Part shown: positions 1 to 4,184 of the stretch, one piece after another | Layout: every line of letters starts with the position of its first letter | Numbering within the stretch: the stretch's first letter is position 1 | Source of the DNA: a virus | Lineage: Duplodnaviria > Heunggongvirae > Uroviricota > Caudoviricetes | DNA length: 5,827 bases | Reading direction: 5' to 3' (one strand) | Virus record (IMG/VR): IMGVR_UViG_2585427710_000003 | Location: 1 to 5,827 of that record | Notes under the pieces: generated by a model | The model's input: the letters and a program-made list of their open reading frames with translations, nothing else | The model's database searches: none | Told to the model about the DNA's origin: nothing | Made by a program: the position numbers and the translations under genes

Positions 1-621
1 CACACCTGGTTTCTGGCTGGCGAAGGTGAATCCCGGGTAACCGAAGAGCGGCCAGTAAAATCTGAAGCACAGGATATGCTGACCGGGGAGGTCGAACAAA
101 AAGTTACCGCAGACATGATGATTGAGTTTATCGGTCAGGATGGGGCTAAAACGTGTGAGGAACTGGCGGGTAAGTTCGGTGTTAGCATTCGCAAGGTTGC
201 TTCCACGTTGGCGGTCGTAACAGCAACGGGGCGCCTGGCACGCGTAAATCAGAACGGTAAATTTCGTTACTGCATACCGGGCGCTGATTTACCGGCAGAG
301 CCGGAAGCTGCATCCGTAGCGGAAACCGATGGTAAAGCCTTTCCTCAGCCAACAGGTGTTGCGTTACCAGTCCAGGAAACGACGACACAGGAAGAAATGA
401 AAACAGAAATCGTGGAAGACATTGTGAAGTTACAGCCATCGGTCACCGAAACGAAAGCAGATGACCTGATTCTACCATCGCTGCATGTGGCTAACCGCGA
501 GCTGCGCCGGGCAAAAGGTCAGGTTCAGAAGTGGGAGCGTGTCTACGCCGCGCTGCGGGAACTGAACAAACACAGGGATATTCTCCGGGATATTACCGCC
601 ACCAGAGAGCTGCTGCGGTGA
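1..621 (+). CDS. Phage hypothetical protein, 5'-truncated by the window edge; winged-helix-like segment followed by a charged, probably coiled-coil C-terminus
   Basis: The reading frame is open from base 1 (no stop before the first ATG at 76) and ends at TGA 619-621. The translation has an HTH-like stretch (EFIGQDGAKTCEELAGKFGVSIRKVASTL) and a Glu/Lys/Arg-rich tail. The stop overlaps a possible GTG start of the next ORF. Function is unknown; the replication-module neighbourhood is inferred from position only. Confidence 0.55.
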   Translation, partial: HTWFLAGEGESRVTEERPVKSEAQDMLTGEVEQKVTADMMIEFIGQDGAKTCEELAGKFGVSIRKVASTLAVVTATGRLARVNQNGKFRYCIPGADLPAEPEAASVAETDGKAFPQPTGVALPVQETTTQEEMKTEIVEDIVKLQPSVTETKADDLILPSLHVANRELRRAKGQVQKWERVYAALRELNKHRDILRDITATRELLR

Positions 622-653
622 GTGGCTGGAAGAAGTGGCGCTGGGCGGAAATT

Positions 654-935
654 ATGATACTCCGGCAGTGTGCGGGAACGATGACAGTCGAAAGCATCGG
701 CAGTCTGATTGGCCGTAGTGGGGCTGCCGTCAGGACGAAAGCGCGGGAACTGGGTATCTGCATGATGTTACGGGGTGATTATCACCAGTCAGCCAAATGT
801 TCACAGCGTGATATTGAGCTGGCGCGGCAACTGCATCAGCGTGGCGTACCCCGACGGGAAATTGCCGAAAAGTTTGGGATGAAGTTGGGCGCAGTGAATA
901 ACTACGTTTATTTCGACAGGAGGGTTCAGGCGTGA
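654..935 (+). CDS. Small phage protein with two HTH-like segments (hypothetical)
   Basis: The track ORF 531..935 overlaps the upstream gene by about 90 nt, so an internal start is more likely: ATG 654, or GTG 618 overlapping the upstream TGA (GTGA). Translation from 654 contains SIGSLIGRSGAAVRTKARELGI and RREIAEKFGMKLGAVNNYV, both helix-turn-helix-like. It ends at TGA 933-935, overlapping the GTG start of the next gene. Confidence 0.45.
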   Translation: MILRQCAGTMTVESIGSLIGRSGAAVRTKARELGICMMLRGDYHQSAKCSQRDIELARQLHQRGVPRREIAEKFGMKLGAVNNYVYFDRRVQA

Positions 936-1237
936 GGGTGAGAATTTATATCGCCGGTCCGATGACGGGATATGAAAATTTCAACCGTGAGGCGTTTCAC
1001 AAGGCGGAAGAAGCACTGAAACAGGAAGGGCATACCGTATTAAATCCCGCAGTACTTCCGGACGGGCTGACTCAGCCACATTACATGGATATTTGCATGG
1101 CAATGATTCGTTGTGTGGATGCGGTTTATATGCTGGAAGGCTGGCAGCGGTCGGCAGGCGCTAAGGCAGAGCTGGCACTGGCGGAGAAACTGGGGCATGC
1201 AGTTATTTTCCAGGAGGCAACCAGTGAGCGAAATTAA
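932..1237 (+). CDS. DUF4406 / nucleoside 2-deoxyribosyltransferase-like protein
   Basis: GTG start at 932 (alternative GTG at 938) with AGGAGG at 917-922. The N-terminus RIYIAGPMTGYENFNREAF matches from memory the hallmark start of DUF4406 proteins common in prophages. Stop is TAA 1235-1237. Confidence 0.65.
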   Translation: MRVRIYIAGPMTGYENFNREAFHKAEEALKQEGHTVLNPAVLPDGLTQPHYMDICMAMIRCVDAVYMLEGWQRSAGAKAELALAEKLGHAVIFQEATSERN

Positions 1238-1247
1238 TTACCAGGAA
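1224..1247 (+). repeat. 24-bp copy of the 5' end of the 171-aa gene (21/24 identical to 1733-1756); encodes a vestigial start VSEINYQE...
   Basis: GTGAGCGAAATTAATTACCAGGAA at 1224-1247 versus ATGAGCGAGATTAATTATCAGGAA at 1733-1756. Flanks on both sides are unrelated. Compared directly in the sequence. Confidence 0.7.
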
Positions 1248-1384
1248 CTACGGCAGGTGAAAGAGAAAGCATAATCCAGAACTGAATAATTAAAATCAGC
1301 ACTGTAAATAAAATTTAATCCTTAACCGGAGGGATTCCTGCACCCTCAGAACATCAGGAGACCGCCCGGCAGGGCGGTAGTGAA

Positions 1385-1567
1385 ATGCGAAAGTTCAAAA
1401 TAATTATTGAAACGGGAATCGCCGGTGGAGATTCCGAGGATGAATTCGAAGTGAATGATGATGCGACGCCTGATGAAATTCATAACGAAGCAAAAGAAAT
1501 TTTCTTTAACTACTGCAATTACTCATATCACGAAATAAAAGACGAAGAGGAAGAACAAAATGGCTGA
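1385..1567 (+). CDS. Small, highly acidic protein (60 aa; 18 Asp/Glu against 5 Lys/Arg); candidate DNA-mimic or anti-defence accessory protein
   Basis: ATG at 1385 is preceded by AGGAG (1356-1360), then a CCGCCC-GGCA-GGGCGG hairpin (1362-1377). Composition is strongly acidic with a C-terminal DEEEEQ. The stop TGA 1565-1567 overlaps the next ATG. It lies in an AT-rich segment that differs from its flanks. Confidence 0.5.
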   Translation: MRKFKIIIETGIAGGDSEDEFEVNDDATPDEIHNEAKEIFFNYCNYSYHEIKDEEEEQNG

Positions 1568-1736
1568 TTTTGGTTCAACTAAATACAACGTCAGTTTTGA
1601 AGAATGGCATGAACTGTTAATGGACTATGCAGAGTTACGTGGTGGAAGTGCCGCCGATGCTGAAGCATGGCGTGATGACTATGAAGCAGGAAAAACTCCG
1701 GTCGAAGCATATTGTGATGAGTGGGGCGATGAATGA
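1560..1736 (+). CDS. Second small acidic protein (58 aa, MADFGSTKYNVSFEEWHELLMDYAELRGGSAADAEAWRDDYEAGKTPVEAYCDEWGDE); below the length cut-off of the supplied ORF track
   Basis: ATG 1560 overlaps the stop of the previous ORF (ATGGCTGA), and its own stop TGA 1734-1736 overlaps ATG 1733 of the next gene (ATGA). It has 16 Asp/Glu against 4 Lys/Arg. The coupling on both sides supports translation. Confidence 0.45.
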   Translation: MADFGSTKYNVSFEEWHELLMDYAELRGGSAADAEAWRDDYEAGKTPVEAYCDEWGDE

Positions 1737-2248
1737 GCGAGATTAATTATCAGGAAGGGCATGAAACGGCAGGGCAGGCAAAACCAGTGGCATGGCGATA
1801 TCGCTACGTGAAAAAAGACGTTACAGACTTTCAGGGGAAGCAGTGGGCTGGTGACTGGAAATATGTACCGACAAAAGAGGATTGTAACGACAGGCCGAAC
1901 TATGAAATTCAGGCCTTATTCATCGGCCCGCCAGTCCCGGTGACATCAGAAGGACTGGTTAAAGCTGTGCGCTTTTATGAACAGGTAAAGCGTGAGAATC
2001 CGCCAGTCGAAACAGGAGCATGGAAGGATGCTGTTGACTGGGTGCTCAGAGAGGCCTGCTGTGCTGCCATTCTGGGTAAAGCCGACAATCCACCAGCATC
2101 CGGCAATCAGGTTAGCGAATTAGCAATGTGGGTTAAACGGCTGGTCAGCCAACTGAAAAAAGCGAAGCCGGACTGCAAATTACCGGATAAGGCGATGGAC
2201 TACCTGAAGCGAAACGGACTGATAAACGAGGAGAATATTTTACGATGA
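1733..2248 (+). CDS. Hypothetical phage protein (171 aa)
   Basis: ATG start coupled to the upstream ORF, 171 codons with balanced composition. Its first 8 codons are duplicated at 1224-1247. Stop TGA 2246-2248 overlaps ATG 2245 of a micro-ORF. No family recognised. Confidence 0.6.
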   Translation: MSEINYQEGHETAGQAKPVAWRYRYVKKDVTDFQGKQWAGDWKYVPTKEDCNDRPNYEIQALFIGPPVPVTSEGLVKAVRFYEQVKRENPPVETGAWKDAVDWVLREACCAAILGKADNPPASGNQVSELAMWVKRLVSQLKKAKPDCKLPDKAMDYLKRNGLINEENILR

Positions 2249-2328
2249 CCTGGCCTGAAGCGTTCATAACGGTAGGAATTGCAATGGCGGTGGCGCTGGT
2301 GGTGTATTCGATTTGCCGCTGGGGATAA
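2245..2328 (+). CDS. Possible 27-aa hydrophobic micro-protein (MTWPEAFITVGIAMAVALVVYSICRWG)
   Basis: ATG 2245 overlaps the stop of the 171-aa gene (ATGA). The peptide has a single predicted transmembrane-like hydrophobic core and ends at TAA 2326-2328. It is too short to judge by statistics; the coupling is the only support. Confidence 0.3.
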   Translation: MTWPEAFITVGIAMAVALVVYSICRWG

Positions 2329-2335
2329 AAACGGT

Positions 2336-2363
2336 TTGCGGGGAAAGAAGAGTTAAGTAGAAT
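2336..2363 (+). promoter_or_regulatory. Candidate promoter for the hok/mok mRNA (-35 TTGCGG 2336-2341, 16-bp spacer, -10 TAGAAT 2358-2363)
   Basis: Sigma70-like hexamers with correct spacing lie just upstream of a sequence (GGTGCTTGAGGCTGTCTGCC, from about 2371) that resembles the 5' end of plasmid R1 hok mRNA as I recall it. Confidence 0.4.
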
Positions 2364-2424
2364 TGCTGCGGGTGCTTGAGGCTGTCTGCCTCGGGCATGC
2401 CGCCGTAAGGCAGACAGAGAAAAG

Positions 2425-2490
2425 CCCCAGTTAACATTATGCGTCCGGCAGGACGCTTAACATTAATCTGAGGCCATATCTATGACTTGC
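2425..2490 (-). ncRNA. sok: Sok-like antisense RNA (antitoxin of the hok/mok type I TA locus); ends approximate
   Basis: Minus strand has -35 TTGCCT (complement of 2520-2525), a 17-bp spacer and -10 TAATCT (complement of 2497-2502), which would start a transcript near 2490. That transcript is antisense to the mok SD and start (2468-2484) and contains the GCGTCC-GGCA-GGACGC hairpin (2441-2456). This matches the known hok/sok arrangement. Confidence 0.4.
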
Positions 2491-2694
2491 ACACTTAGAT
2501 TAGCCTCTTATGCGCCGAAAGGCAAGGAGCAGCAGGCTATGAAGCAGCAAAAGGCGATGCTAATCGCCCTGATCGTCATCTGTATTACCGTCGTTGTAAC
2601 GGTACTGGTAACGAGGAAAGACCTCTGCGAGGTACGAATCCGAACCGGCCAGACGGAGGTCGCTGTCTTCACAGCTTACGAACCTGAGGAGTAA
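2482..2694 (+). CDS. mok: Mok-like leader reading frame (70 aa), in frame with hok and sharing its stop
   Basis: ATG 2482 has GAGG about 9 nt upstream. The ORF runs in frame into the hok ORF, as I recall chromosomal mok/hok pairs do. The sok target would cover its start. Confidence 0.5.
   Translation: MTCTLRLASYAPKGKEQQAMKQQKAMLIALIVICITVVVTVLVTRKDLCEVRIRTGQTEVAVFTAYEPEE
2497..2525 (-). promoter_or_regulatory. Candidate sok promoter on the minus strand, inside the mok coding region
   Basis: Reverse complement of 2497-2525 reads TTGCCT-17 bp-TAATCT. The position inside mok and the orientation toward the mok start match known hok/sok loci. Confidence 0.4.
2539..2694 (+). CDS. hok: Hok/Gef-family type I toxin (51 aa, MKQQKAMLIALIVICITVVVTVLVTRKDLCEVRIRTGQTEVAVFTAYEPEE)
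   Basis: ATG 2539 with AAGGAG at 2524-2529. The translation has the Hok/Gef signature: N-terminal transmembrane helix, TRKDLCEV, and a ...EVAVFTAYE... tail. From memory it is closest to HokD(RelF)/HokC(Gef). The flanking mRNA elements (leader, mok, terminator) are all present. Confidence 0.9.
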   Translation: MKQQKAMLIALIVICITVVVTVLVTRKDLCEVRIRTGQTEVAVFTAYEPEE

Positions 2695-2762
2695 GAGACC
2701 AGGCGGGGGAGAAATCCCTCGCCACCTCTGATGTGTCAGGCATCCTCAACGCACCCGCACTT

Positions 2763-2790
2763 AACCCGTTTCGGCGGGTTTTGTTTTTTC
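2763..2790 (+). terminator. Rho-independent terminator of the hok mRNA
   Basis: AACCCG (2763-2768) pairs with CGGGTT (2775-2780), followed by TTGTTTTTT (2781-2789). It sits about 70 nt after the hok stop. Confidence 0.7.
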
Positions 2791-2860
2791 CTGGCATTCT
2801 GGTTTACAATTCGCACGCCAGCCTGAACAACTGGCACCTGCTGCGTCACCGGAGAACCCG

Positions 2861-3133
2861 ATGGCGCAACATATAAAATCCCACAATTCTGAAGCCGTCC
2901 CGGCCATTAAGCGGGGGCGGCATTCGCACGTATTTAAAACCGACTGGTACCAGCATCCCCCCTGCACTGAAGAACAGGCCGAATGGCTGATTCAGTGTTA
3001 CCGCAGGCGCGGATACGAGGTTAAGAAAGCCATCAGCCTCGATTATCGTCACTGGATAATCTCTGTCAGGCTCCCTTATTCCGAACATCCACCGCGTCCG
3101 TCCCGCACATTCCAGCAACGTATCTGGAGGTAA
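2861..3133 (+). CDS. Hypothetical phage protein (90 aa)
   Basis: ATG 2861 with GGAGA at 2851-2855. Stop TAA 3131-3133 lies 1 nt before the GTG start of the DUF968-like gene, which implies co-translation. A minus-strand ORF of similar size overlaps it but has no start context. Confidence 0.5.
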   Translation: MAQHIKSHNSEAVPAIKRGRHSHVFKTDWYQHPPCTEEQAEWLIQCYRRRGYEVKKAISLDYRHWIISVRLPYSEHPPRPSRTFQQRIWR

Positions 3134-3134
3134 C

Positions 3135-4184
3135 GTGCGGGTATTACTTCGACCTGTTCTGGTGCCGGAACTTGGCCTGGTGGTCCTTAAGCCCGGACGC
3201 GAATCACTGCCTGTTTTTCATTGCGGCAGGGTGCTGGTGGAGCCGGAACCGAAAAACATGCGCGGTCTGCCGTCCGGAGTCGTTCCTGCCGTTCGCCAGC
3301 CGCTGGCAGAGGATAAAACATTACTGCCATTTTTCTGCGATGAGCGGGTTATTCGTGCAGCAGGTGGTGCAGGTGCACTGTCTGACTGGTTATTACGTCA
3401 CGTGAAATCCTGCCAGTGGCCACACGGCGATTATCATCACAGCGAAACCGTCATTCACCGTTATGGTACCGGCGCGATGGTGTTGTGCTGGCACTGTGAC
3501 AACCAGCTGCGCGACCAGACATCAGAATCACTCGATCAACTTGCTCAGCAGAATCTGGTTGCCTGGATGATTGACGTCATCCGTCACGCAATAAGCGGTA
3601 CGCAGGAGAGGGAGTTATCGCTGGCCGAATTATCCTGGTGGGCGGCCTGCAATCAGGTGGTGGATGCACTACCTGAGGCAGTAGCGCGTTGTTCGCTGGG
3701 ATTACCAGCGGAAAAAATCCGCTCCGTATACCGTGAGAGTGACATCGTACCGGGAGAACAGACAGCCATCAGCATACTGAAGCAGCGCACAAAAAATATT
3801 GCGCTGCCACTTCACGTCCACCAGCAACAAAATCCACCACAGAAAAAAACGGTTGTCAGTATCGCCGTTGATCCGGAGTCTCCTGAATCGTTCATGAGGC
3901 GGCCTAAATGTCGCCGTTGGGTTAATGAGAAATACACGCGCTGGGTAAAGACACAGCCGTGTGCGTGTTGTGGTAAGCCAGCTGACGATCCGCATCACCT
4001 GATTGGTCATGGTCAGGGGGGAATGGGAACAAAGGCCCACGATATTTTCACGCTACCGTTGTGCCGGGAGCACCACAACGAACTTCATGCAGACCCGCAG
4101 GAGTTTGAGAAAAAGTACGGCTCTCAGATTGAGTTAATTTTTCGTTTTCTTGATCACGCCTTTGCGACTGGCGTGCTCGGGTAA
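3135..4184 (+). CDS. DUF968-like prophage protein with a C-terminal HNH/His-Me-finger-like Cys/His motif
   Basis: GTG 3135 with GGAGG at 3126-3130; an internal ATG at 3258 is an alternative start. The C-terminus reads CACCGKPADDPHHLIGHGQGG...LPLCREHHNELH, and there is an earlier C..WHCDN cluster. From memory this resembles the DUF968 proteins found next to Q in E. coli cryptic prophages. Confidence 0.75.
   Translation: MRVLLRPVLVPELGLVVLKPGRESLPVFHCGRVLVEPEPKNMRGLPSGVVPAVRQPLAEDKTLLPFFCDERVIRAAGGAGALSDWLLRHVKSCQWPHGDYHHSETVIHRYGTGAMVLCWHCDNQLRDQTSESLDQLAQQNLVAWMIDVIRHAISGTQERELSLAELSWWAACNQVVDALPEAVARCSLGLPAEKIRSVYRESDIVPGEQTAISILKQRTKNIALPLHVHQQQNPPQKKTVVSIAVDPESPESFMRRPKCRRWVNEKYTRWVKTQPCACCGKPADDPHHLIGHGQGGMGTKAHDIFTLPLCREHHNELHADPQEFEKKYGSQIELIFRFLDHAFATGVLG

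Follow-up and report, generated by a model that had tools for sequence, protein, structure and literature searches.

The region downstream of the DUF4406 gene

The window, by which we mean the whole stretch of 5,827 nucleotides that was analysed, is part of a Stx2-converting lambdoid prophage. In the region considered here (Table 1), a DUF4406 gene is followed by a short open reading frame, a conserved intergenic leader, genes for two small acidic proteins (DUF7167 and a 58-aa product) and a 171-aa open reading frame at 1733–2248. More than 100 loci have the intergenic leader, placed 5' of DUF7167 or of another gene. Its hairpin is predicted by RNA folding; the fold of the intergenic RNA as a whole is not significant (z = -1.48), and a scan against Rfam matched only sok. 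None of the six proteins tested gave a match in NCBIfam.

Table 1. Features of the DUF4406 to 171-aa region, in window coordinates
Feature	Position	Strand	Evidence
DUF4406 gene, 101 aa	932–1237	+	PF14359, E=3.5e-37
Conserved Shine-Dalgarno and spacer, AGGAGGCAACCA (first base at 1212)	1213–1223	+	precedes Ea22-like starts after unrelated genes
Copy 1, vestigial Ea22-family leader, 16 codons and stop (VSEINYQELRQVKEKA)	1224–1274	+	DNA alignment
3'-end remnant (TAATCCAGAACTGAATAA) of a downstream gene that was lost, leading into the conserved CTGAATAA boundary	1272–1291	+	17/18 identity
Conserved intergenic leader 5' of DUF7167	1292–1384	+	Shine-Dalgarno CAGGAG, 1355–1360; hairpin ACCGCCC-GGCA-GGGCGGT, 1361–1378
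DUF7167 gene, 60 aa, acidic	1385–1567	+	PF23768, E=3.5e-13
58-aa acidic gene (phrog_519)	1560–1736	+	ATGA overlap of its stop with the following start
Copy 2, 17-codon Ea22-family leader, diverged but functional (MSEINYQEGHETAGQAK)	1733–1783	+	in-register alignment to other leaders, lambda ea22 included
171-aa gene body: PVAWRYRYVKK... module and a separate C-terminal module	1784–2248	+	phrog_660, E=6e-72; shared phrog_250

A segment of 24 nucleotides occurs twice in this region, at 1224–1247 (GTGAGCGAAATTAATTACCAGGAA, copy 1) and at 1733–1756 (ATGAGCGAGATTAATTATCAGGAA, copy 2), with 21/24 identity, as an earlier sequence-only reading had reported. These are the only two sites in the window within three mismatches of the pattern, and the pair can be extended to 32 nt (1216–1247 and 1725–1756) at 81% identity. 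The first 14 nt of copy 1 are also the last 14 of the DUF4406 gene, and copy 2 is the start of the 171-aa open reading frame. The three differences between them, GTG/ATG at the start codon, GAA/GAG (Glu) and TAC/TAT (Tyr), are all synonymous, and both copies encode the peptide (M)SEINYQE. Their flanks had been described as unrelated, which is roughly right, except that codons 9–16 of both are diverged, in-register versions of a leader of the same family. Both copies lie exactly at mosaic homology breakpoints, as had been proposed, with alignments to relatives stopping at about 1217, 1249–1252, 1270 and 1754.

The repeat as the leader of ead/Ea22-like genes

The two copies are the conserved 5' leader of ead/Ea22-like genes (Pfam PF13935, IPR025153), a mosaic accessory-gene family of lambdoid phages with lambda ea22 as its founding member. 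The leader consists of a ribosome-binding site, a start codon and about 16 codons encoding [M/V]SEINYQALREAAEKA, the consensus found across PF13935-family leaders. To the explanation as a whole, namely Ea22-type leaders, a stub in a first slot and a mosaic gene in a second, we give a probability of about 0.85.

The start of lambda ea22 (GTGAGCGAAATTAAC / GTGAGCGAAATTAACTCTCAGGCACTGCGTGAAGCGGCAGAGCAGGCA, encoding VSEINSQALREAAEQA) is the same in DNA and in peptide, and both copies conform to the leader motif [M/V]S[EK]I[ND]YQALRE.AE.A (profile positions 1–16). In six intact Ea22-like proteins from the loci studied, position 1 of the PF13935 profile aligns to residue 2. The 34 distinct leaders head open reading frames of 114–353 aa and vary synonymously at the conserved residues (Leu as CTG, CTT, TTA or CTA; Arg as CGT, CGC or CGA). 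A 49-nt probe from copy 1 matched 224 E. coli records, 61 of them at 95% identity or more and another 163 at 80–90%; among the roughly 45 of these 163 that were listed, almost all matches fall on annotated ead/Ea22-like genes. The motif follows many unrelated upstream genes, and the neighbours of those listed matches carry annotations as diverse as YfdS, DUF2737, TraR/DksA, eae-like and DUF551, among others.

A mosaic make-up of Ea22 proteins, in which a common amino-terminal segment is combined with dissimilar C-terminal domains, has been reported (PMC10834534; PMC7093339), and a C-terminal K/RGE motif (...IRIKGE) was present in all those analysed (PMC7093339). The Ea22 proteins of lambda and Phi24B have pro-lysogenic activity and form tetramers (PMC7093339; PMC10834534).

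A full match to the PF13935 profile, whose gathering score is 27 bits, would cover the leader and the central coiled-coil. Controls scored 41–135 bits (lambda Ea22, L013, L006b, L009, L002a, P0079 and P0106; L and P numbers denote the related loci and proteins compared). The 171-aa protein of the window gave no PF13935 match at E<=0.01 or E<=10, and at E<=10 neither its first 30 residues nor the reconstructed stub peptide was matched. The assignment to the family is therefore based on alignments of DNA and peptide and on an intermediate, the homologue P0024, whose leader over the 17 positions of copy 2 is the canonical MSEVNYQALREAVEQAI and which has a sub-threshold PF13935 match (22.6 bits, profile positions 1–26 only).

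Copy 1 is the stub of a deleted gene

The last codons of the DUF4406 gene (ATSERN and stop) run out of frame across the ribosome-binding site and the first codons of copy 1. Phage Rac-SA53 has the same 101-aa form of DUF4406 and an identical 18-nt junction (ttttccaggaggcaacca), followed by an intact ead/Ea22-like gene. The 12 nt aggaggcaacca are likewise identical 5' of intact Ea22-like genes in L013, HK106, vB_EcoP-720R6 and Rac-SA53. Compared with the start of the intact PF13935 gene of L013, copy 1 is identical at 23/24 and 41/48 positions, besides the 12 nt before the start codon. In the window this frame closes after 16 codons, which bears out the earlier description of a vestigial gene start. 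Both leaders belong to the family, and copy 1 is the leftover stub of a mostly deleted Ea22-like relative, not a gene. No genome was found with an intact gene that has exactly the 48 nt of the stub; the nearest intact leaders are 85% identical, which weighs against our explanation. L026 and L027 were considered as the undeleted parent, since their 171-aa protein is identical to that of the window, and were rejected: the identity of their DUF4406 is no more than 87%, and the leader of their Ea22-like gene is of another subtype, MREVNYEALRE.

The sequence following the stub is 17/18 identical to the last codons (ACAAAATCCAGAACTGAATAA) of a 118-aa phrog_1621 gene present in L002, L006, L007 and L026; the ...TCCAGAACTGAATAA of that gene is retained immediately after the stub, and homology to L026 resumes at 1270. 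A stub followed by the last codons of another gene points to a loss of DNA at this position, not a gain. In L002, L007, L020, L026 and about 34 IMG/VR loci, an intact Ea22-like gene and the 118-aa gene come after DUF4406, in this order, and the same downstream block as in the window then follows (intergenic region, DUF7167, 58-aa gene, 171-aa gene). Genomes whose content between the repeat copies differs, which the sequence-only reading had proposed to look for, exist. The exact junction of the stub is best fitted by a deletion at a 3-nt CAA microhomology, probably followed by a change of AAA to TAA. This additional substitution counts against our explanation.

The stub is in decay. It also occurs after a TRM11 methyltransferase gene (L012), a DUF977 gene (L073, where indels break its frame) and DUF4752 genes (L120–126). 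Between L121 and L106 it was lost through a 43-nt deletion between GAAGAGAAA repeats (79/80 identity). Fusion of a leader to a DUF4752 tail was considered as the primary origin of the stub because GAGAAAGCATAATCCA ends some DUF4752 genes. It was rejected because the tail ending in EEKA can be derived from DUF4752 plus stub by this same 43-nt deletion, and also because GAGAAAGCA matches codons 14–16 of the leader itself. The end of the stub, GAGAAAGCATAA, coincides with the tail of some DUF4752 genes; the tail was probably derived from the stub and, less probably, the stub from the tail.

The 171-aa gene

The 171-aa gene is mosaic in sequence, an Ea22 leader of 17 codons being joined to an "AWRYRYVKK" module. 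Codons 1–7 of copy 2 are identical to the family leader motif, and from codon 8 to codon 17 it diverges in register. Its upstream flank is also shared: the identical 18-nt junction tgatgagtggggcgatga at the end of the 58-aa gene stands before full-length Ea22-like genes in L006 and L008, which also share the first 12 nt of copy 2. The AWRYRYVKK...AVDWVL module is 77–85% identical to the matching part of the PF13935-positive proteins P0079 and P0106, and it is found as well in P0089, a protein outside the PF13935 scan. These three proteins end in IRIKGE (P0079), IGIKGE (P0089) and TGIKGD (P0106); the 171-aa protein ends in ...NEENILR and has no C-terminal K/RGE motif. The phrog_250 family matches both the 171-aa protein and the Ea22-like protein of L002. 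Other homologues of the 171-aa protein have unrelated N-termini.

We propose that prophages of this type hold Ea22-type genes in two slots, the first immediately 3' of replication-module genes (DUF977, DUF4406 and others) and the second immediately 3' of the gene for the 58-aa acidic protein. Here the first-slot gene has been reduced to the 16-codon stub, its leader being joined to the last few codons of the downstream gene, with a loss of at least about 0.7 kb; relatives hold an Ea22-like gene and the 118-aa gene there. The second slot is occupied by the 171-aa gene, in which a diverged leader runs straight into a module known elsewhere as the C-terminal portion of full Ea22-like proteins.

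Alternative explanations

The sequence-only reading held that DUF4406 and the 171-aa gene were once neighbours, coupled at this start, and that recombination at the short homology later brought in the DUF7167/58-aa module of about 0.5 kb, with a duplicated start left on either side. The module is indeed flanked by the repeat, both copies of which lie at homology breakpoints, both copies have Glu (GAA) at codon 8, a position that is Ala (GCA or GCG) in most leaders, and genes with the same core and other N-termini lack the acidic module (L003, L004 and L012). However, no uninterrupted copy of a synthetic DUF4406/171-aa junction occurs among 5,426 complete E. coli genomes; the 59 E. coli records covering at least 80% of it all carried 474–639 extra bases. 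Placement of the 171-aa gene directly after DUF4406 was likewise absent from 50,697 phage records, 80 viral contigs and 78 IMG/VR loci. The DUF7167, 58-aa and 171-aa genes are in fixed linkage, the first two preceding the third in all 78 IMG/VR loci with readable upstream sequence. Nor are the two copies each other's closest relatives, identity over the full leader being 31/48 against 41/48 between copy 1 and L013, and copy 2 having identical flanks in L006b and L008b. Insertion of the module at the repeat is further contradicted by the end of another gene lying directly 3' of copy 1 and by relatives having more, not less, DNA between DUF4406 and DUF7167. The reading had itself named as fatal a conserved ribosome-binding or regulatory motif shared by unrelated genes; the repeat proves to be how a large gene family, whose members stand after unrelated genes, characteristically begins. 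Such an insertion is by those standards already largely refuted, and we consider it very unlikely. One arrangement in its favour is that of L015, a 1,007-bp short-read contig in which a 171-aa homologue directly follows a DUF977 gene, with no acidic module. This arrangement was absent from all complete genomes searched, and the contig may be a misjoin across the repeated leader. Taken at face value, L015 indicates that a 171-aa gene can sit directly in the first slot, and we count it against our own explanation.

The stub could also have been kept as a translated 16-codon upstream open reading frame, coupled to DUF4406 and tuning the DUF7167 operon, perhaps together with a hairpin between Shine-Dalgarno and AUG. 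It has a strong Shine-Dalgarno (AGGAGG) 5 nt 5' of its GTG, it is 95–100% identical across 61 records, it turns up in four genomic contexts, and the downstream intergenic region and hairpin are conserved. That identity would be expected anyway for recently diverged prophages, the UTR fold overall is not significant, and the same downstream genes are expressed without a stub in many relatives. Variants with indels that are not multiples of three (L073 type), with one codon lost (L120 type) or with the entire stub lost (L106 type) argue in the same direction and make such a function very unlikely. Still less can be said for the copies being products of local duplication or gene conversion within the prophage. 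The 21/24 identity with synonymous changes, the shared codon 8, which could hint at conversion, and a ACGGCAGG octamer 3' of both copies might suggest it, but the fall in identity beyond the 24 nt, near-identical counterparts of each copy, flanks included, in other genomes, a GAA at codon 8 in one intact family member elsewhere and the 7-nt offset that puts the octamer out of register make it highly improbable; the leader identity table also suggests that the copies belong to different clades. Chance similarity has a negligible probability: in 200 dinucleotide-preserving shuffles the pattern never matched twice, and hundreds of annotated gene starts carry the motif.

Relation to known phage mosaicism

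The Ea22-type sequences of the window share with the known family both the interchange of C-terminal modules behind a common amino-terminal segment (PMC10834534) and, in the AWRYRY module, a part of PF13935-positive proteins with IKGE- or IKGD-type ends. The 171-aa protein differs from them in having neither the central coiled-coil, as judged from the PF13935 scan, nor the terminal K/RGE motif, and copy 1 is no gene at all. In lambda, ea22 belongs to the leftward early operon (exo-xis region); the members found here lie in the rightward early region, 3' of replication genes. The annotated int-exo region of this prophage contains no further Ea22 copies.

The modular evolution of lambdoid phages, with its short conserved "linker" sequences at the boundaries of modules, has been reviewed (PMC2327257; PMC3945230). 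The Ea22 leader resembles them in being an island of about 40–50 nt of homology in unrelated DNA, exactly at a gene boundary, in being common to lambda-like, P22-like (Lederbergvirus) and Rac-like phages and phage-plasmids, and in having a second boundary, CTGAATAATTAAAT, that closes the variable slot. Unlike a non-coding joint, it is mostly coding and, as its synonymous variation shows, is maintained by selection on the peptide. The positions of the breakpoints suggest that this short leader serves as a patch of homology at which phage or host recombinases exchange or delete neighbouring modules. A stronger proposal, in which the leader and its fixed ribosome-binding site would make up, together with the downstream CTGAATAATTAAAT boundary, a dedicated cassette-exchange system, seems very unlikely to us. 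If it were true, these short sequences would be partly under selection at the DNA level for swapping, duplicating or dropping accessory genes at two slots, and the widespread stub would be a retained "empty-slot" landing pad and not junk.

The pattern is one of known lambdoid and Ea22 mosaicism, the ordinary wear of a mosaic prophage, and the understanding of phage mosaicism and of Stx phage biology is unchanged by it. For annotation, the 171-aa "hypothetical protein" of this Stx2-converting prophage becomes a leader-plus-module mosaic relative of the lambda Ea22 family, and the 51-nt open reading frame after DUF4406 a pseudogene stub, not an insertion scar. The region is a small, clear example of how lambdoid accessory regions evolve, with conserved gene starts and ends bracketing a variable slot in which deletions at tiny repeats erode genes. 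As in other decaying prophages, relatives of the window show start-plus-tail remnants and deletions between direct repeats of 7–9 nt: L016 and L024 retain a mini-remnant made of the leader and an AGIRIKGE tail, and L005 has a 371-nt deletion between AAACGGC heptamers, in addition to the change from L121 to L106. The stub junction of the window differs from these in having at most 3 nt of microhomology and one further substitution.

Two gene starts of the Ea22 family

The window sequence is contained at 100% identity in a prophage of E. coli strain 99-3311 (NZ_CP101310). Genes in the window were assigned with Pfam and PHROG for proteins and by RNA match for sok. The repressor and replication genes come first, then DUF1627, a gene for a small DNA-binding protein, DUF4406, DUF7167, the genes of 58 aa and 171 aa, hok/sok, DUF968, RusA, a Q-like antiterminator (DUF1133), tRNAs and stx2. 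This order places the repeat among the rightward early accessory genes of an Stx2-converting prophage of lambdoid type. Its two copies share 21 of 24 nt, and the three differences (GTG/ATG, GAA/GAG and TAC/TAT) are all synonymous. At up to three mismatches the pattern occurs in the window at these two sites only, and none of 200 shuffles contained two matches, which confirms the repeat described from the sequence alone.

Features of the repeat and its surroundings (window coordinates)
Feature	Position	Description
Copy 1 ORF (stub)	1224-1274	16 codons, VSEINYQELRQVKEKA and stop; repeat at 1224-1247; shares last 14 nt of DUF4406
Boundary CTGAATAATTAAAT	1283-1297	equivalents in ~100 loci
Shine-Dalgarno	1355-1360	CAGGAG
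Hairpin	1361-1378 (within 1355-1387)	ACCGCCC-GGCA-GGGCGGT; 7-bp GC-rich stem, tetraloop
DUF7167 start	1385	ATG
Copy 2	1733-1756	start of 171-aa ORF
AAACGGC heptamers	1764-1770, 2135-2141	bounds of deletion in L005
MTWPEAFITVGIAMAVALVVYSICRWG ORF	2245-2328	27 codons; start overlaps 171-aa stop (ATGA)
hok/sok	2370-2694	type I toxin-antitoxin locus
sok RNA	2370-2544	RF01794, 114.8 bits
Hok/Gef ORF	ends 2694	PF01848-positive

Database searches matched window 1212-1252 to the starts of “ead/Ea22-like” genes; the phages and phage-plasmids that carry them (HK106, a Lederbergvirus, Stx2c phages, RCS47 and Salmonella VSe13) are unrelated and share nothing else. The common start, or leader, is AGGAGGCAACCA-GTGAGCGAAATTAATTACCAGGCACTGCGTGA..., encoding VSEINYQALRE.AE.A; that of lambda ea22 is GTGAGCGAAATTAACTCTCAGGCACTGCGTGAAGCGGCAGAGCAGGCA, encoding VSEINSQALREAAEQA. 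The feature is of a known kind, in an unannotated instance. Since position 1 of PF13935 (Ead_Ea22) falls on residue 2 of six scanned intact Ea22-like proteins (lambda Ea22, L013, L006b, L009 and P0079; positions 2-3 for L002a and P0106), the leader is the beginning of the family model. Among the fetched loci, 34 distinct 51-nt leaders head ORFs of 114-353 aa, and conserved residues use several codons (Leu CTG/CTT/TTA/CTA, Arg CGT/CGC/CGA, Tyr TAC/TAT), a variation indicating selection on the peptide and not on the DNA only. A 49-nt probe from copy 1 matched 224 E. coli records: 61 at ≥95% identity, all stub forms, and 163 at 80-90%. Among the lower-identity matches listed (~45 of 163), almost all lie on annotated ead/Ea22-like genes, next to YfdS, DUF2737, TraR/DksA, eae-like, DUF551 or another Ea22-like gene. 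Ea22 proteins have been described as mosaics in which a shared amino-terminal segment and a coiled-coil are combined with C-terminal domains that are dissimilar, and those of lambda and Phi24B favour lysogeny (PMC7093339, PMC10834534).

Origin of the two copies

Both copies and the gene starts of relatives were compared in register. Copy 1 matches the intact Ea22-like gene of locus L013 at 23/24 of the first nucleotides and 41/48 overall, with 12 identical upstream nt, and Rac-SA53, where the same DUF4406 form precedes an intact ead gene, at 22/24 and 37/48, with 18 identical upstream nt. Copy 2 shares its first 12 nt and 18 upstream nt with the full-length Ea22-like genes that in L006 and L008 come after the 58-aa gene (which score 32-33/48 against copy 1), and its codons 9-16 (GGG CAT GAA ACG GCA GGG CAG GCA) align in register with the lambda codons CTG CGT GAA GCG GCA GAG CAG GCA. 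The two copies are paralogous leaders. A local duplication as the source of both was rejected, as they match each other at only 31/48, against 41/48 between copy 1 and L013, and have unrelated upstream flanks.

The sequence-only reading held that the 171-aa gene once directly followed DUF4406 and that a roughly 0.5-kb acidic-protein module, here DUF7167 and the 58-aa gene, was inserted at the repeat. This history is not supported. A synthetic query joining DUF4406 (974-1223) straight to the 171-aa gene (1733-1982) was covered to at least 80% in 59 E. coli records, every time in two pieces, with 509 bp (the window type, 39 records), 639 bp (an Ea22-like gene, 17) or 474 bp (DUF4752, 3) of extra DNA between them; no phage record covering 80% of this junction was found. 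In all 78 IMG/VR loci whose upstream sequence could be read, DUF7167 and the 58-aa gene come before the 171-aa gene; the part that varies is a slot bounded by the replication genes and DUF7167. The sole arrangement resembling the predicted one is L015, a 1,007-bp Logan contig with P0024, a homologue of the 171-aa protein, directly after DUF977; it has no counterpart among the complete genomes searched and may have been misjoined at the repeated leader.

Instead, copy 1 is a stub remaining after DNA loss, and in this its description as vestigial was borne out. L002, L007, L020, L026 and ~34 IMG/VR loci have, after DUF4406, an intact Ea22-like gene of 153 aa and a 118-aa phrog_1621 gene, and then the window-type intergenic region and the DUF7167, 58-aa and 171-aa genes. 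Homology between the window and L026 ends at 1217 and restarts at 1270 (97.9% over 1,061 nt), and TAATCCAGAACTGAATAA, directly after the stub, agrees at 17/18 positions with the final codons (...ACA AAA TCC AGA ACT GAA TAA) of the 118-aa gene. In the best-fitting junction, leader ...GAGAAAG-CAA-CG would have been joined to tail ...GCGA-CAA-AATCC at a 3-nt microhomology, giving an in-frame product ending ...EKAKSRTE and a stop, in which a single later A-to-T change would have created the present TAA. No parent gene with exactly the leader of copy 1 was found. Stub variants with a broken frame speak against a coding role.

Spread and decay of the stub

The stub is old and mobile, and it is decaying. 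GAGAAAGCATAATCCA is common to all its variants, which follow DUF4406 (window type), a TRM11 methyltransferase gene (L012), DUF977 (L073 and L101, with the frame destroyed by indels) or DUF4752 (L120-L126, one codon missing); L133-type loci carry an intact Ea22-like gene after DUF4752. The “...EEKA” end of DUF4752 in L004 (3000-3040) and L106-type loci (L106-L119) appears to have been borrowed from the leader stub. Removing the 43 nt that lie between two GAAGAGAAA direct repeats turns the L121 sequence into the L106-type one (79/80 match), so the stub was probably lost secondarily in L004- and L106-type loci.

A second, independent kind of leader-retaining internal deletion is found after DUF977 in L016 and L024 (1640-1705), where eight leader codons are followed by SIT and the C-terminal AGIRIKGE... 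tail of the family; a mutation has turned the L016 start codon into GTA. In L005 (3290-3300; E. coli 2012C-4431), a 371-nt frameshifting deletion within the 171-aa gene is bounded exactly by the AAACGGC heptamers and directly illustrates how genes in the region erode at microhomologies.

The 171-aa protein as a mosaic relative

MSEINYQE starts 46 of 120 close homologues of the 171-aa protein, among them shortened and lengthened forms of 119-264 aa; in others, the core comes after unrelated N-termini ending ...ALASLEAEP-[V/I/M]AWRYRYVKK. P0024 has the canonical leader MSEVNYQALREAVEQAI at the exact 17 positions where the window reads MSEINYQEGHETAGQAK, and gives a sub-threshold PF13935 match (profile positions 1-26). 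The AWRYRYVKK...AVDWVL module also occurs within PF13935-positive P0079 and P0106 and in P0089 (outside the PF13935 scan), all three with an IKGE/IKGD-type C-terminal end. The 171-aa protein is therefore a mosaic Ea22-family relative, composed of the leader, one common module and a different C-terminal module. Unlike the family, it has neither a coiled-coil nor a K/RGE end; it does not reach the formal Pfam threshold and was therefore not filed as a PF13935 member.

The MTWPEAFITVGIAMAVALVVYSICRWG ORF resembles a lone transmembrane helix. P0025 (198 aa), a homologue of the 171-aa protein, carries it as an in-frame fusion, and in L015 it is also present downstream of P0024.

Module boundaries

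Established ideas on lambdoid mosaicism include module exchange at short conserved flanks and the action of phage recombinases on sequences that have diverged (PMC2327257, PMC3945230). Homology breaks at ~1217, 1249-1252, 1270 and 1754, so that the copies do mark mosaic joints, as first proposed. Together with CTGAATAATTAAAT, a second conserved boundary, these breakpoints are consistent with such exchange; recombination at the leader itself we only infer. Five or more unrelated upstream genes have ...CTGAATAA as their end right at CTGAATAATTAAAT, and the intergenic leader beyond it is the same each time. The E. coli O145 prophage of L006 (1794-4462) has two copies of a block of Ea22-like, 118-aa and 70-aa genes, separated by DUF7167 and the 58-aa gene. 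Its first Ea22-like copy is frameshifted, and this tandem arrangement clearly displays the two “slots”.

The hairpin lies between the Shine-Dalgarno sequence and the DUF7167 start codon and, if formed, would put the two at a normal distance. The fold of the whole UTR upstream of DUF7167 was not significant. Twenty sequence variants retain the hairpin, mostly via wobble-compatible changes; 3 loci have a G-C to A-T double change, but 16 have an A.C mismatch.
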